From Escherichia coli (lineage in GTDB: Bacteria > Pseudomonadota > Gammaproteobacteria > Enterobacterales > Enterobacteriaceae), in NCBI RefSeq assembly GCF_003334815.1, contig NZ_QOWO01000020.1: 64,000 nt of DNA. The stretch is one strand, 5' to 3'. This document shows, in pieces, positions 3,127 to 10,993 of the stretch. Position numbers and translations under genes: made by a program. The notes under the pieces were generated by a model that made no database searches, was not told the origin of the DNA, and was given only the letters and a program-made list of their open reading frames with translations. Within the stretch, counting starts at the first letter, position 1. The number at the start of each line of letters is the position of its first letter.

Positions 3127-3981
3127 ATGCAACAAAAAATGATTCAATTTAGTGGCGATGTCTCACTGCCAGCCGTAGGGCAGGGAACATGGTATATGGG
3201 CGAAGATGCCAGTCAGCGCAAAACAGAAGTTGCTGCACTACGCGCGGGCATTGAACTCGGTTTAACCCTCATTGATACCGCCGAAATGTATGCCGATGGC
3301 GGTGCCGAAAAGGTGGTTGGGGAAGCATTAACCGGTCTGCGAGAGAAGGTCTTTCTCGTCTCTAAAGTCTATCCGTGGAATGCTGGCGGGCAAAAAGCGA
3401 TAAATGCATGCGAAGCCAGTTTACGCCGTCTCAATACTGATTATCTCGATCTTTACTTATTACACTGGTCTGGCAGTTTCGCTTTTGAAGAGACTGTCGC
3501 AGCGATGGAAAAATTGATCGCCCAGGGAAAAATCCGCCGCTGGGGCGTTTCTAACCTTGATTATGCTGATATGCAGGAACTCTGGCAGCTGCCGGGGGGA
3601 AATCAGTGTGCCACTAATCAGGTGCTTTACCATCTCGGTTCACGAGGAATTGAGTACGATCTACTCCCCTGGTGCCAGCAACAGCAGATGCCGGTGATGG
3701 CTTACAGTCCGTTAGCCCAGGCCGGGCGGTTGCGCAATGGACTGTTAAAAAACGCGGTAGTCAACGAAATTGCACATGCTCACAATATCAGCGCGGCACA
3801 AGTATTGTTGGCGTGGGTGATCAGTCATCAGGGTGTGATGGCGATTCCAAAAGCGGCCACGATTGCCCATGTCCAACAAAATGCGGCTGTGCTTGAGGTC
3901 GAACTTTCTTCGGCGGAATTAGCTATGCTGGATAAGGCATATCCGGCACCAAAAGGAAAAACTGCGCTGGATATGGTGTGA
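3127..3981 (+). CDS. yeaE: aldo-keto reductase YeaE (284 aa)
   Basis: ORF track. ATG at 3127 preceded by GGGAGG. AKR family sequence. Confidence 0.92.
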   Translation: MQQKMIQFSGDVSLPAVGQGTWYMGEDASQRKTEVAALRAGIELGLTLIDTAEMYADGGAEKVVGEALTGLREKVFLVSKVYPWNAGGQKAINACEASLRRLNTDYLDLYLLHWSGSFAFEETVAAMEKLIAQGKIRRWGVSNLDYADMQELWQLPGGNQCATNQVLYHLGSRGIEYDLLPWCQQQQMPVMAYSPLAQAGRLRNGLLKNAVVNEIAHAHNISAAQVLLAWVISHQGVMAIPKAATIAHVQQNAAVLEVELSSAELAMLDKAYPAPKGKTALDMV

Positions 3982-6333: not shown

Positions 6334-6747
6334 ATGGCTAATAAACCTTCGGCAGAAGAACTGAAAAAAAATTTGTCCGAGATGCAGTTTTACGTGACGC
6401 AGAATCATGGGACAGAGCCGCCATTTACGGGTCGTTTACTGCATAACAAGCGTGACGGCGTATATCACTGTTTGATCTGCGATGCCCCGCTGTTTCATTC
6501 CCAAACCAAGTATGATTCCGGCTGTGGCTGGCCCAGTTTCTACGAACCGGTAAGTGAAGAATCCATTCGTTATATCAAAGACTTGTCACATGGAATGCAG
6601 CGCATAGAAATTCGTTGCGGTAACTGTGATGCCCATCTGGGGCATGTCTTCCCCGACGGGCCGCAGCCAACGGGCGAACGTTATTGTGTTAACTCTGCCT
6701 CTTTACGCTTTACCGATGGCGAAAACGGCGAAGAAATCAACGGTTGA
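6334..6747 (+). CDS. msrB: peptide methionine-(R)-sulfoxide reductase MsrB (137 aa)
   Basis: ORF track 6304..6747 trimmed to ATG 6334 ([12 protein letters not shown]...). Contains CxxC zinc motifs and the SelR domain. Confidence 0.93.
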
Positions 6748-6788
6748 AAAAACGATTCAGCAACTTATTCCACAGGAGCGGAAAAATT

Positions 6789-7061
6789 ATGAATCTTGAT
6801 GACATTATCAACAGCATGATGCCTGAGGTATACCAGCGTTTGTCGACCGCCGTTGAACTGGGGAAATGGCCTGATGGCGTTGCGTTGACCGAGGAACAAA
6901 AAGAGAACTGCCTGCAACTGGTGATGCTGTGGCAAGCCCGCCATAATATCGAAGCACAGCATATGACAATTGACACAAATGGTCAGATGGTCATGAAGAG
7001 CAAACAGCAGTTAAAAGAAGATTTTGGTATCTCAGCAAAGCCTATTGCCATGTTTAAGTAA
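6789..7061 (+). CDS. yeaC: DUF1315 family protein YeaC (90 aa)
   Basis: ORF track 6744..7061 trimmed to ATG 6789 (MNLDDIINSMMPEV...) with GGAG 8 nt upstream. Begins after the msrB stop. Confidence 0.88.
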   Translation: MNLDDIINSMMPEVYQRLSTAVELGKWPDGVALTEEQKENCLQLVMLWQARHNIEAQHMTIDTNGQMVMKSKQQLKEDFGISAKPIAMFK

Positions 7062-7320
7062 GTGGTTCATCCCCTTTTTGCCTCGGCTATGAAGGGGATA
7101 GCCAACAATGACCCCACGACTCATCTCAATTATCTCGCCATGACCTGGCTAAGTCCCAGTCCGATCTCTTGCCGTCCCGTTCACACCTGAATGACTTCTC
7201 CTGAACTTAAGTCTCAGACCTATTTGGCCGGTAATCCCTCTCGAATTTGCTCTTTTTGCGCCCCGCCTTCCATCAACCTGTAACAGACCCAGCCATTTTC
7301 TGCGTAATTGTGATCTGAGT

Positions 7321-7352
7321 TGTAAAACGCAGATTATTATCTGTGTTTTACA
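7321..7352. promoter_or_regulatory. imperfect inverted repeat, candidate operator upstream of ydjL
   Basis: TGTAAAACGCAG (7321-7332), spacer ATTATTAT, CTGTGTTTTACA (7341-7352). The arms are reverse complements with one mismatch. Lies about 80-110 bp upstream of the ydjL ATG. Confidence 0.3.
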
Positions 7353-7430
7353 GATTTAATGTTGACCTCAAAAATCATGTGGGTAAGTATGATGGCCATC
7401 TAAGCAAAACTAAACACAGAGGATGACGCA

Positions 7431-8507
7431 ATGAAAGCACTGGCTCGGTTTGGCAAGGCCTTTGGCGGCTACAAGATGATTGATGTCCCACAACCCATGT
7501 GTGGCCCGGAAGATGTAGTGATTGAAATTAAAGCCGCGGCAATCTGCGGCGCAGACATGAAGCACTACAATGTCGATAGCGGTTCTGATGAGTTTAACTC
7601 TATCCGCGGCCATGAGTTCGCAGGTTGTATTGCGCAGGTTGGTGAAAAAGTCAAAGACTGGAAAGTGGGGCAACGCGTCGTATCGGATAACAGCGGTCAC
7701 GTTTGCGGTGTTTGTCCGGCCTGTGAACAAGGTGATTTTCTGTGTTGTACAGAAAAAGTAAACCTTGGTCTGGATAATAATACCTGGGGCGGTGGTTTTT
7801 CCAAATATTGTCTGGTTCCTGGTGAAATTCTCAAAATTCATCGTCATGCGTTGTGGGAAATCCCTGATGGTGTTGATTATGAGGACGCAGCCGTACTTGA
7901 CCCTATCTGTAATGCCTACAAATCCATCGCGCAGCAATCGAAATTCCTTCCTGGTCAGGATGTGGTCGTCATCGGCACTGGCCCACTCGGGCTGTTCTCC
8001 GTACAAATGGCGCGAATTATGGGGGCGGTAAATATCGTCGTCGTTGGTCTGCAAGAAGATGTGGCGGTCCGCTTCCCGGTTGCAAAAGAACTGGGTGCGA
8101 CGGCAGTAGTAAATGGTTCTACCGAAGATGTGGTGGCGCGCTGCCAGCAAATTTGTGGCAAAGACAATCTGGGACTGGTGATTGAATGCTCCGGTGCCAA
8201 TATCGCACTGAAACAAGCCATCGAAATGCTCCGCCCGAACGGGGAAGTGGTACGCGTTGGAATGGGCTTCAAACCTCTTGATTTCTCGATTAATGACATT
8301 ACCGCCTGGAACAAAAGCATCATTGGGCATATGGCCTATGACTCCACCTCATGGCGTAACGCTATCAGGCTATTAGCCAGCGGCGCTATCAAAGTCAAAC
8401 CGATGATCACGCATCGTATCGGCCTGTCGCAATGGCGCGAAGGGTTTGATGCGATGGTCGATAAAACCGCAATCAAAGTGATCATGACTTACGACTTTGA
8501 TGAATAA
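7431..8507 (+). CDS. ydjL: Zn-dependent alcohol/polyol dehydrogenase (MDR family) YdjL (358 aa)
   Basis: ORF track. ATG 7431 with AGAGGA Shine-Dalgarno. GHEFAG and Cys zinc-ligand motifs. Confidence 0.92.
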   Translation: MKALARFGKAFGGYKMIDVPQPMCGPEDVVIEIKAAAICGADMKHYNVDSGSDEFNSIRGHEFAGCIAQVGEKVKDWKVGQRVVSDNSGHVCGVCPACEQGDFLCCTEKVNLGLDNNTWGGGFSKYCLVPGEILKIHRHALWEIPDGVDYEDAAVLDPICNAYKSIAQQSKFLPGQDVVVIGTGPLGLFSVQMARIMGAVNIVVVGLQEDVAVRFPVAKELGATAVVNGSTEDVVARCQQICGKDNLGLVIECSGANIALKQAIEMLRPNGEVVRVGMGFKPLDFSINDITAWNKSIIGHMAYDSTSWRNAIRLLASGAIKVKPMITHRIGLSQWREGFDAMVDKTAIKVIMTYDFDE

Positions 8508-8533
8508 CCACTCTCCTGAAGGAACGTTATCGC

Positions 8534-9913
8534 ATGGAACAGATAACAAAACCGCATTGTGGTGCACGGCTGGATCGCTTACCGGATTGCCGCTGGCATT
8601 CATCAATGTTTGCCATCGTCGCGTTTGGCTTGCTTGTCTGCTGGAGTAATGCCGTTGGTGGCTTGATCCTCGCGCAGCTGAAAGCGTTGGGCTGGACAGA
8701 TAATTCCACCACAGCCACATTCTCAGCAATCACGACCGCCGGAATGTTTCTCGGTGCGCTGGTGGGCGGCATCATTGGCGACAAAACCGGTCGCAGAAAT
8801 GCGTTCATCCTCTATGAGGCCATTCATATTGCCTCGATGGTTGTCGGTGCTTTCTCACCGAATATGGATTTCCTTATTGCCTGCCGTTTTGTGATGGGAG
8901 TTGGGCTGGGAGCTTTACTGGTTACGCTGTTTGCTGGTTTCACCGAATATATGCCCGGTAGAAATCGTGGAACGTGGTCAAGTCGGGTTTCCTTTATTGG
9001 CAACTGGTCATATCCGCTCTGTTCATTGATAGCGATGGGACTCACGCCGCTGATTAGTGCAGAGTGGAACTGGCGGGTACAACTGCTTATCCCTGCAATA
9101 TTGTCGCTTATCGCTACGGCGCTGGCCTGGCGCTACTTTCCTGAATCCCCGCGCTGGCTGGAATCGCGCGGACGGTATCAGGAAGCCGAGAAAGTCATGC
9201 GGAGTATAGAAGAAGGCGTCATACGCCAGACGGGTAAACCTTTGCCGCCTGTGGTTATTGCTGATGACGGTAAAGCGCCACAAGCGGTGCCGTATTCAGC
9301 CTTACTGACAGGAGTATTACTGAAACGCGTGATATTAGGCTCTTGTGTGCTGATTGCCATGAACGTTGTGCAGTACACACTAATTAACTGGTTGCCAACA
9401 ATATTCATGACCCAGGGGATTAATTTAAAAGACTCGATTGTTTTAAATACCATGAGTATGTTTGGCGCACCATTTGGTATTTTTATTGCCATGCTGGTGA
9501 TGGATAAAATTCCGCGTAAAACAATGGGTGTGGGGCTATTAATCCTGATTGCGGTGCTCGGATATATCTATTCACTGCAAACCAGTATGTTGCTCATAAC
9601 GTTGATTGGTTTCTTCCTGATTACTTTCGTCTATATGTACGTTTGCTATGCCTCGGCAGTGTATGTCCCTGAAATCTGGCCGACAGAGGCCAAACTCCGT
9701 GGCTCCGGTCTGGCGAATGCGGTAGGGCGAATCAGTGGTATTGCCGCACCTTATGCCGTTGCAGTGCTGCTCAGTAGTTATGGCGTTACGGGAGTCTTTA
9801 TTCTTCTGGGGGCGGTTTCAATTATTGTCGCAATTGCTATCGCCACCATTGGAATCGAAACCAAAGGTGTCTCCGTTGAAAGTTTAAGTATTGATGCAGT
9901 AGCCAATAAATAA
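8534..9913 (+). CDS. ydjK: MFS transporter YdjK (459 aa)
   Basis: ORF track. Multi-pass hydrophobic protein with MFS signature (GxxxDKxGRR). Confidence 0.92.
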   Translation: MEQITKPHCGARLDRLPDCRWHSSMFAIVAFGLLVCWSNAVGGLILAQLKALGWTDNSTTATFSAITTAGMFLGALVGGIIGDKTGRRNAFILYEAIHIASMVVGAFSPNMDFLIACRFVMGVGLGALLVTLFAGFTEYMPGRNRGTWSSRVSFIGNWSYPLCSLIAMGLTPLISAEWNWRVQLLIPAILSLIATALAWRYFPESPRWLESRGRYQEAEKVMRSIEEGVIRQTGKPLPPVVIADDGKAPQAVPYSALLTGVLLKRVILGSCVLIAMNVVQYTLINWLPTIFMTQGINLKDSIVLNTMSMFGAPFGIFIAMLVMDKIPRKTMGVGLLILIAVLGYIYSLQTSMLLITLIGFFLITFVYMYVCYASAVYVPEIWPTEAKLRGSGLANAVGRISGIAAPYAVAVLLSSYGVTGVFILLGAVSIIVAIAIATIGIETKGVSVESLSIDAVANK

Positions 9914-9929
9914 TACGGGTGGATTCAAA

Positions 9930-10973
9930 ATGAAAAATTCAAAAGCAATATTGCAGGTGCCGGGCACAATGAAAATTATTTCAGCAGAAATACCAGTGCC
10001 TAAAGAAGATGAAGTTTTGATTAAAGTAGAATATGTCGGTATTTGTGGTTCAGATGTACATGGTTTTGAATCAGGCCCGTTTATTCCGCCTAAAGACCCA
10101 AATCAAGAAATTGGCCTGGGTCATGAATGCGCCGGGACGGTTGTGGCTGTGGGAAGCCGCGTGCGCAAATTTAAACCGGGGGATCGGGTAAATATCGAAC
10201 CTGGCGTTCCTTGCGGTCACTGTCGTTACTGTCTGGAAGGCAAATATAACATCTGCCCGGACGTTGATTTTATGGCGACACAACCCAACTACCGCGGCGC
10301 ATTAACGCACTATCTGTGTCATCCGGAGAGCTTTACTTACAAACTGCCCGACAATATGGACACGATGGAAGGGGCGCTGGTGGAGCCTGCCGCAGTCGGG
10401 ATGCATGCCGCGATGCTGGCAGATGTTAAACCGGGTAAGAAGATAATTATTCTGGGAGCAGGTTGTATTGGTTTGATGACGTTGCAAGCGTGCAAATGCC
10501 TGGGAGCAACGGAAATTGCCGTCGTTGATGTGCTGGAAAAACGTCTGGCAATGGCGGAACAGCTTGGTGCGACAGTGGTTATTAACGGCGCAAAAGAAGA
10601 CACTATTGCACGCTGTCAGCAATTTACCGAAGACATGGGCGCAGATATTGTTTTCGAAACAGCGGGTTCTGCGGTCACCGTTAAACAGGCACCTTATCTG
10701 GTAATGCGCGGCGGTAAAATTATGATTGTTGGTACTGTACCCGGCGATTCGGCAATCAATTTCCTCAAAATCAATCGCGAAGTCACTATCCAGACGGTAT
10801 TCCGCTATGCCAATCGTTATCCGGTCACGATTGAAGCTATTTCTTCAGGGCGATTCGATGTGAAATCGATGGTGACGCATATTTACGATTATCGGGATGT
10901 ACAACAGGCATTTGAAGAGTCAGTTAACAACAAACGCGACATTATTAAAGGCGTTATTAAAATTAGCGATTAA
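9930..10973 (+). CDS. ydjJ: Zn-dependent alcohol/polyol dehydrogenase YdjJ (347 aa)
   Basis: ORF track. ATG 9930 with GGTGGA Shine-Dalgarno. GHECAG zinc motif. Confidence 0.92.
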   Translation: MKNSKAILQVPGTMKIISAEIPVPKEDEVLIKVEYVGICGSDVHGFESGPFIPPKDPNQEIGLGHECAGTVVAVGSRVRKFKPGDRVNIEPGVPCGHCRYCLEGKYNICPDVDFMATQPNYRGALTHYLCHPESFTYKLPDNMDTMEGALVEPAAVGMHAAMLADVKPGKKIIILGAGCIGLMTLQACKCLGATEIAVVDVLEKRLAMAEQLGATVVINGAKEDTIARCQQFTEDMGADIVFETAGSAVTVKQAPYLVMRGGKIMIVGTVPGDSAINFLKINREVTIQTVFRYANRYPVTIEAISSGRFDVKSMVTHIYDYRDVQQAFEESVNNKRDIIKGVIKISD

Positions 10974-10993
10974 TTAATACGGGAGAACAGAAC

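Follow-up and report, generated by a model that had tools for sequence, protein, structure and literature searches.

Which protein, if any, recognizes the inverted repeat that lies ahead of ydjL in Escherichia coli? The DNA considered here is a 64,000-nucleotide stretch of contig NZ_QOWO01000020.1, called the window. Its yeaC-ydjL spacer carries TGTAAAACGCAG (7321–7332), an 8 nt spacer, and CTGTGTTTTACA (7341–7352). The first-pass annotation proposed that this repeat, hereafter the dyad, is a candidate operator for YdjF, the DeoR-type regulator encoded in the ydj cluster. We suggest a modified answer. The dyad is probably the junction of two imperfect palindromic 17 bp operators, O2 and O1, in a phased array of predicted YdjF sites, an array most likely used for repression against CRP and RNA polymerase. 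Coordinates are collected in Table 1.

The dyad is non-random. As had been claimed, its 12 bp arms differ by one mismatch and it lies some 80–110 bp before ydjL in a 369 bp intergenic region; the measured distance to the ydjL ATG is 79–110 nt. The repeat can be extended to 14 nt arms (7321–7334 and 7339–7352) that are 93% complementary around a 4 nt spacer. Inverted repeats with 12 nt arms, no more than one mismatch, and a spacer no longer than 12 nt yield 29 overlapping matches (about 11 loci) in the 64 kb, versus 2.0 ± 2.1 in random sequences generated by a first-order Markov model. The chance of finding one in a single 369 bp spacer is about 1%. The other such repeats in the window are mostly G+C-rich hairpins of the terminator type, whereas the ydjL dyad is A+T-rich. 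The 12-mer arm is not otherwise enriched in the window, with 8 matches at up to two mismatches and 7.0 expected, i.e., chance level.

A 17 bp Palindrome Shared across Phyla

The comparison sample consists of 58 loci encoding YdjL relatives, taken from species-representative genomes, with the cluster genes mapped in each. To avoid circularity, a palindromic Gibbs sampler was applied only to 12 ydjL upstream regions from Firmicutes and Actinobacteria. The motif obtained was ATCTTTGAATCAAAGAT, with member sites such as TTCTGTGAAACACAGAA and ATCTTTGAATCAAAGAA, and its score was 122.9, as compared with 86.6 ± 2.0 (maximum 91.3) in 20 shuffled sets. The recognizable unit is a 17 bp palindrome resembling ATCTGTG-N3-CACAGAT, with the consensus ATCTKTG-N3-CAMAGAT.

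When the position weight matrix (PWM) of these Firmicutes and Actinobacteria sites is run across the entire E. coli window, the best match is O1, at 19.6 bits. The runner-up, at 17.1–17.7 bits, is OF, upstream of ydjF, and the match that follows reaches 12.3 bits. The two promoter regions make up about 270 of the 64,000 positions, and the chance of both top matches landing there is about 2e-5. For scale, scores of at least 5 bits occur at 0.14% of window positions and scores of at least 10 bits at 0.017%. O1 contains invariant alignment columns and is found in 23 of 23 Enterobacterales promoters, scoring 10.4–21.5 bits.

The reciprocal scan used a PWM of the enterobacterial sites on 13 non-enterobacterial loci in which ydjL heads the cluster, each scanned over its whole 11–21 kb. 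The locus-wide top match lies at most 310 nt upstream of ydjL in nine of them, and in four loci (L037, L038, L040, and L024) so do all of the two or three best matches. Thus the Firmicutes motif, the reciprocal scan, and the footprint of conservation in Enterobacterales agree that the motif is conserved upstream of orthologous clusters beyond shared flanking ancestry.

YdjF and Its Own Promoter

YdjF has the HTH_DeoR (Pfam, E 7e-17) and DeoRC (E 3e-49) domains. It falls below every NCBIfam equivalog cut-off, that for GlpR included; its match to the FucR model has an E-value of 6e-40, below the cut-off, and its match to the DeoR model an E-value of 1e-24, with 87 bits versus a cut-off of 244. 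Every Enterobacterales locus that reaches the position of ydjF has an ortholog of it, as do 14 non-enterobacterial loci. In all complete loci examined, which span three phyla, the cluster comes with a YdjF ortholog, and YdjF is the only regulator recognized among the cluster genes common to all these taxa. The cluster therefore both encodes and co-inherits a DeoR-type regulator, as would befit an operator of this kind.

The ydjF promoter carries the motif as well, which is suggestive of autoregulation, and the offset to the −35 hexamer is the identical 23 nt. Across 23 species, the block AAATCTGTGATTCAGACA at OF hardly varies. A second site covers the −35 of this promoter, and an upstream half-site scores up to 8.3 bits in other genera and negative in E. 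coli. The promoter itself, TTGAAA-17-GATAAT, figures among published constitutive RpoD promoters and is recognized by RNA polymerase alone (PMC3946193).

Geometry of the Predicted ydjL Promoter

The best σ70 match downstream of O1 is TTGACC-17-AAGTAT. Across Enterobacterales its TTGA is invariant, and the next C and the −10 segment TAAGTAT are nearly so. From it we infer a transcription start site (TSS) near 7397–7398; with a start at about 7398, O1 would be centered at about −51 and the probable CRP site discussed below at about −81.5. A promoter scanner proposed TTTACA-17-AAAAAT (7347–7375), but these hexamers are unconserved, reading TTTAAA and AAAGAT in other genera, and TTGACC-17-AAGTAT is preferred.

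The strong site starts 23 nt before the −35 in Enterobacterales and 24–25 nt before it in seven Firmicutes and Actinobacteria loci. Behind the site, Firmicutes have near-consensus promoters, e.g., TTGACT-17-TAAAAT and TTGAAA-17-TACAAT. Motif-like sites occur on either side of the strong site, offset by about −21 and +20, at both promoters of E. coli and in most genera; L037, L024, and L040 likewise show a tandem spacing of 20–21 bp. At ydjL these flanking sites are O2 and O0. At −21 in Serratia there is likewise a site, ATCTGCGAAACAAATAA (12.3 bits), though its sequence is non-homologous to the E. coli left arm. The equivalents of O0 reach 9.3 bits in other genera (ATGTTGACCTCAAAGAT) and 10.4–12.1 bits in the ydjF promoter. 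A fourth box, 20 bp upstream of O2 (7298–7314, TTCTGCGTAATTGTGAT, about 3–4 bits), would continue the 20–21 bp phasing, but its left half is found in Escherichia only, and this unconserved box is not counted.

The Dyad as a Probable Composite of Two Sites

In an alignment of 25 enterobacterial upstream regions, similarity between genera sets in sharply near 7303 and extends to the ATG; sequence further upstream is unrelated. The resulting block of about 130 bp, 7296–7430, travels with the ydjLKJIHG-ydjF cluster across Enterobacterales, and it stays while the upstream neighbor varies (yeaC in Escherichia, a divergently transcribed gene in Citrobacter). Among E. coli genomes, 14 of 4328 fall below 95% identity over 7296–7430, versus 2217 of 4334 over 7120–7295. 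The conserved blocks are TTTGTGATCT; GTTGTGAAA (TTGTAAAAC in Escherichia); CAGAT; ATCTGTGTTTTA(A/C)AGATTT; TGTTGACC; and TAAGTAT. The dyad sits in the most conserved portion of the ydjL promoter region, and its arms are unchanged in five diverse E. coli strains, where the sole variable base is 7335 in the loop, which is T in the window and otherwise C.

The two arms nevertheless have different histories. The left-arm site is kept within the Enterobacteriaceae, is replaced or absent in Serratia and Enterobacillus, and is also unconserved in Symbiopectobacterium. The right-arm region is kept where the left arm is not, and there it forms a palindrome of its own, ATCTGTGTTTCACAGAT. Arm-to-arm symmetry is 13/14 in Escherichia and about 9/14 in Citrobacter and Klebsiella. 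Because the strong 17-mer O1 is flanked by motif-like sites about two helical turns away, the dyad is best read as the composite symmetry of O2 and O1. The near-perfect 14 nt symmetry seems to arise incidentally from two imperfect palindromes that adjoin each other, with centers 21 bp apart. Thus the proposal of an operator for the cluster's DeoR regulator holds in part. The repeat is in the conserved part of the promoter, a ydjF ortholog goes with the cluster, and the motif recurs before ydjF, but the 12-N8-12 dyad is not the conserved unit. Upstream of ydjL orthologs it is the right-arm region that persists, while near-perfect symmetry is confined to Escherichia.

A Probable CRP Site Next to the Predicted Array

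The operon ydjLKJIHG is reported to be activated by Crp, and its promoter fragment bound Crp-cAMP in an electrophoretic mobility shift assay (PMC8085971). Genomic SELEX (systematic evolution of ligands by exponential enrichment) with CRP lists ydjF as a predicted target (PMC3105977). The segment 7306–7327 is a probable CRP site, which would share the left arm with O2. It agrees with TGTGA-N6-TCACA at 7 of 10 core positions (left half 5/5; right half, TTGTA, 2/5). It is the best CRP-like sequence in the spacer, and a rough PWM places it 10th among some 64,000 positions, a rank that is indicative only. TGTGA (7309–7313) and the C at 7315 are identical in 24 of 24 species, and the T at 7314 is nearly so.

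CRP was rejected as the protein that binds the dyad or O1, both of which fit TGTGA-N6-TCACA poorly; the motif also occurs in Firmicutes. E. coli-type cAMP-CRP control is not known in Firmicutes or Actinobacteria, and hence CRP does not explain the shared 17-mer. A TyrR box (TGTAAA-N6-TTTACA) was also rejected: the spacing here is N20, and most genera have TGTGAA...TTTAAA, in which the critical C is lost.

A Palindrome within ydjL

The third or fourth best PWM match in the window (11.6–12.2 bits) is a palindrome inside ydjL. In 23 Enterobacterales, codons 102–108 have a synonymous codon entropy of 0.19 bits versus a gene mean of 1.04, the lowest of 339 six-codon windows (rank 1), and five of these seven codons are invariant, as compared with 5% gene-wide. 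These figures suggest a remote operator acting through DNA looping, although the codon constraint may have another cause. Firmicutes ydjL orthologs do not have the intragenic site.

A Model for Regulation, and Its Alternatives

The proposed mechanism is as follows. The array O2-O1-O0, phased at 20–21 bp (21 bp between the centers of O2 and O1), runs from the probable CRP site at about −81 to the −35. A YdjF dimer would bind the strong site, O1, first, and a YdjF oligomer would then fill the weaker O2 and O0, presumably cooperatively. O2 shares bases with the probable CRP site, and O0 lies over the −35, so that occupancy of O2 would exclude CRP, occupancy of O0 would occlude the −35, and both CRP-dependent activation and RNA polymerase binding would be blocked. 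The equivalent arrangement upstream of ydjF would provide autoregulation. Release of YdjF is envisaged to be by a pathway intermediate, probably a sugar phosphate, as in other DeoR-family proteins. The palindrome inside ydjL may serve as a remote operator for looping. We advance more tentatively a possible history: the position of the array relative to the −35 would have been kept since the cluster moved among Proteobacteria, Firmicutes, and Actinobacteria, and in Enterobacterales the array would also take in the ydjL-internal operator, which would constrain synonymous codons and close a repression loop of about 400 bp.

Several points weigh against a YdjF array used for repression. The E. coli scores of O2 and O0 are low, about 5 bits each, and Enterobacillus has no O2 and Serratia no O0. 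Conservation of the left arm could be owed to CRP as much as to YdjF. The reciprocal scan gave no strong match upstream of ydjL in two Anaerococcus loci and L027. O1, at about −51, is upstream of the core promoter, and this position, kept across phyla, also fits an activator. The literature searched contains no described YdjF site and no YdjF binding, footprint, ChIP (chromatin immunoprecipitation), or genetic data. It likewise contains no experimental TSS for the ydjL promoter. The sole published TSS used for the region lies inside yeaC, at window position 6954 (MG1655 1861819), where a ydjL leader construct begins (PMC7815308).

A strong Rho-dependent 3′ end maps to window position 7585 (MG1655 1861188), 154 nt into the ydjL open reading frame (PMC7815308). 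With a TSS in yeaC and a Rho-dependent end in ydjL, read-through transcripts made under laboratory conditions thus run across the silent promoter of ydjL until Rho halts them. This promoter, inactive in culture, becomes active in the mouse gut, where a promoter screen found that of ydjLKJIHG among the most consistently induced (PMC6561318).

The sign of regulation is the point on which an alternative has most to say. YdjF, or another protein that binds the 17 bp site, could be an activator or dual regulator that touches RNA polymerase just upstream of the −35. The site-to-(−35) distance of 23–25 nt is kept across phyla and is more typical of activators, the ydjL −10 (AAGTAT) is weak, and FucR, the model of which YdjF matches at a sub-cut-off level, is an activator of the DeoR family. 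We regard this as unlikely. A negative sign is favored by the motif-like sites over both −35s, by the near-consensus Firmicutes promoters, by a ydjF promoter that polymerase reads alone, by the precedent of GlpR, and by the norm of the family, as DeoR-family members are mostly repressors. Somewhat less probable still is that the 32 bp dyad is a single symmetric unit with 12–14 nt arms, an operator for a YdjF dimer or tetramer. Its symmetry is statistically unusual and near-perfect in E. coli, its arms are invariant in the sampled strains, and a tetramer on two adjacent palindromes would leave the same footprint. Against it stand the decay of symmetry in Citrobacter and Klebsiella and the replaced left arm in Serratia, Enterobacillus, and Symbiopectobacterium. 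The cross-phylum palindrome, moreover, is centered at 7347, not at 7336.5, and the ydjF and Firmicutes promoters have the 17-mer without a long dyad.

Two further explanations dispense with a dedicated regulator, and both seem very improbable. The conserved block might be bound mainly by global regulators, namely CRP and perhaps others. The in vitro binding and activation by CRP, the invariant TGTGA, and the listing of ydjF by SELEX all speak for it, but O1 and OF fit the CRP consensus poorly, and Firmicutes and Actinobacteria, which have YdjF orthologs, share the 17 bp motif along with its geometry. The least credible reading is that the dyad acts as an RNA hairpin (terminator, attenuator, or leader structure) in yeaC read-through transcripts. 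The + strand does fold at −19.3 kcal/mol (z = −5.1), a scanner calls the dyad terminator-like (15 pairs, tail ATTTAATGTT), the region can be transcribed, given that the leader construct starts in yeaC, and most differences between genera are G-U compatible on the + strand. However, only 4 of the 15 pairs are G-C, and the U-tract is poor. The supplements checked map no Term-seq 3′ end to the dyad; the end of yeaC is at 7118, and the Rho-dependent one lies within ydjL, at 7585. Covariation does not exceed that of shuffled alignments (85.4% of cells paired versus 85.9%, with one double-sided change), and an E-value scan of 6500–8000 returned no Rfam family. The hairpin is weaker in Citrobacter (z −1.5), where there is no read-through because the upstream gene is divergent, and it is different in Serratia and Enterobacillus. 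An intrinsic terminator or structured leader was rejected on these grounds: an A+T-rich stem, no mapped 3′ end, no covariation, no Rfam family, and a hairpin unconserved in distant genera. The array of predicted YdjF operators is thus the reading that we retain.

The Locus and Its Distribution

The ydjL-yeaC spacer of the window is 100% identical to that of E. coli FORC 064, and the window is chromosomal DNA. In the FORC 064 annotation the gene order is gapA (− strand), msrB, yeaC, ydjL, ydjK, ydjJ, ydjI, ydjH, ydjG, ydjF, ydjE, with ydjL to ydjE on the + strand.

Table 1. Features of the ydjL and ydjF promoter regions, in window coordinates.
Feature	Coordinates	Strand	Sequence	Remarks
First-pass dyad	7321–7352			Apparently built from the inner and outer halves of two neighboring operator-like sites, O2 and O1
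O1, main predicted YdjF operator	7339–7355		ATCTGTGTTTTACAGAT	Starts 23 nt before the −35 hexamer; holds the right arm of the dyad
O2, weaker auxiliary operator-like site	7318–7334		AGTTGTAAAACGCAGAT	5.3 bits; 21 bp upstream of O1; contains the left arm of the dyad
O0, weak operator-like site	7359–7375		ATGTTGACCTCAAAAAT	5.2 bits; 20 bp downstream of O1; covers the −35
Candidate CRP site	7306–7327		AATTGTGATCTGAGTTGTAAAA	Left half TGTGATC, poor right half; overlaps O2 by 10 bp
Inferred ydjL promoter	7362–7390	+		−35 TTGACC (7362–7367), 17 nt spacer, −10 AAGTAT (7385–7390)
Palindrome in ydjL, candidate remote operator	7738–7754		TTCTGTGTTGTACAGAA	Codons 103–108; 399 bp from O1
OF, predicted YdjF operator upstream of ydjF	13819–13835		ATCTGTGATTCAAACAG	Starts 23 nt before the −35
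Second ydjF-promoter site	13839–13855		ATTTTGAAAGTAAACAT	20 bp downstream of OF; covers the −35; 10.4 bits, 12.1 in most genera
Upstream half-site of the ydjF promoter	13797–13813		TTCTGTG...	22 bp upstream of OF; block CCTCTGTTTCTGTGTAAAA conserved
ydjF promoter				−35 TTGAAA (13842–13847), 17 nt spacer, −10 GATAAT
yeaC-ydjL intergenic spacer	7062–7430			369 bp
ydjL	7431–8507	+		ATG at 7431
ydjLKJIHG operon, presumed regulated target	7431–13772	+		Based on the FORC 064 annotation and on synteny in other taxa
ydjF, DeoR/GlpR-family regulator, presumed binder	13909–14667	+		HTH_DeoR and DeoRC domains

The full ydjLKJIHGF(E) cluster is found in Escherichia, Citrobacter, Klebsiella, Raoultella, Yokenella, Budvicia, Intestinirhabdus, Symbiopectobacterium, and Enterobacillus; the Serratia contig stops within ydjK. 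Outside the Enterobacterales, clusters with YdjL of 76–85% and YdjF of 41–56% identity occur in Lachnospiraceae, Eubacteriaceae, Anaerococcus, Enterococcus, Megamonas, and one Atopobiaceae genome. In these taxa (loci L023–L046) synteny to E. coli covers the entire ydj cluster, ydjF included. The distribution suggests that the cluster has spread horizontally among gut bacteria. Where a non-enterobacterial cluster bears ydjK, there is mostly room for one additional gene between ydjL and ydjK; in L037, the only one examined in this respect, the extra gene encodes an allulose-6-phosphate-3-epimerase-like enzyme.

Some observations on individual genomes are recorded here. In Klebsiella michiganensis (L013, 11104–12480), no tblastn match covering at least 60% of YdjK is found where it would be expected; its neighbors are intact, and ydjK may be disrupted. 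The yeaC-ydjL spacer is missing from 1092 of 5426 complete E. coli genomes (about 20%). In KTa005 (L064), IS1 follows right after yeaC, and the ydj cluster is deleted as far as a truncated gene for a transporter of the major facilitator superfamily that adjoins pncA upstream. Fragments of ydjL that are 95–100% identical to E. coli lie on tiny contigs of 241–545 bp (L041, L043, L044, and L045) in Terrisporobacter, Prolixibacteraceae, and Limosilactobacillus assemblies. From the contig names, the coverage of two of these is about 0.7–0.9x, and contaminated assemblies are the most likely source. Within the window, yeaE (methylglyoxal reductase, 3127–3981) is annotated in FORC 064 as a pseudogene with an internal stop.

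Two other repeats were noticed. The poorly conserved distal part of the spacer has a 16 nt direct repeat, TAAGTCCCAGTCCGAT and TAAGTCTCAGACCTAT, at 7150–7165 and 7208–7223, with 81% identity. At 63828–63855 lies CCTAATGATTTTTATCAAAATCATTAAG, an A+T-rich near-perfect inverted repeat that is the sole other long dyad in the window not resembling a terminator; by eye, it is Fur-box-like.

Relation to Known Systems, and Significance

The closest parallel is GlpR at glpFK, where four tandem operators are interleaved with CRP sites and the repressor is released by glycerol-3-phosphate (PMC4117983). As in the glpFK layout of O1–O4 with CrpI and CrpII, the ydj array would combine a DeoR-family regulator encoded with sugar or polyol catabolism, a CRP-dependent promoter, and tandem operators about two helical turns apart. 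By analogy, a phosphorylated pathway intermediate, the type of ligand that releases GlpR, is likewise proposed for YdjF. The systems differ in that GlpR half-sites are of the TGTTCGAT type, versus ATCTGTG at ydjL, and in that the strongest ydjL site lies upstream of the −35 and not over the core promoter. Operators within a coding region, as would be the case for the palindrome inside ydjL, are found in glpD.

E. coli DeoR shares the family helix-turn-helix with YdjF. Its 16 bp palindromic operators (O1, O2, and OE) are hundreds of bp apart and act with DNA looping, and CRP co-regulates deoP2. The sequence of the DeoR operators is TGTTAGAA.TTCTAACA, and they overlap the −10 regions of deoP1 and deoP2. 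In contrast, YdjF matches the DeoR model weakly, and looping at ydjL is only suggested, by the synonymous-site constraint. CytR offers a further comparison. It is an anti-activator, a repressor that binds upstream of the −35, beside a CRP site or partly over it, and blocks CRP-dependent activation instead of the core promoter. Predicted YdjF binding upstream of the −35 would likewise be next to a probable CRP site or partly over it. Unlike YdjF, CytR belongs to the LacI family and needs protein contact with CRP, and there is no sign of a YdjF-CRP contact here.

The analysis is a standard regulon reconstruction and reveals no new mechanism. What it supplies is a concrete predicted operator consensus for YdjF, an E. 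coli transcription factor still without a known target, site, or signal. Sites defined at both promoters, together with the inferred architecture of CRP site and phased array, make YdjF testable and give a handle for finding its inducer. Conservation of both motif and geometry across phyla indicates that a regulator-operator pair can travel intact with its catabolic cluster among gut bacteria.

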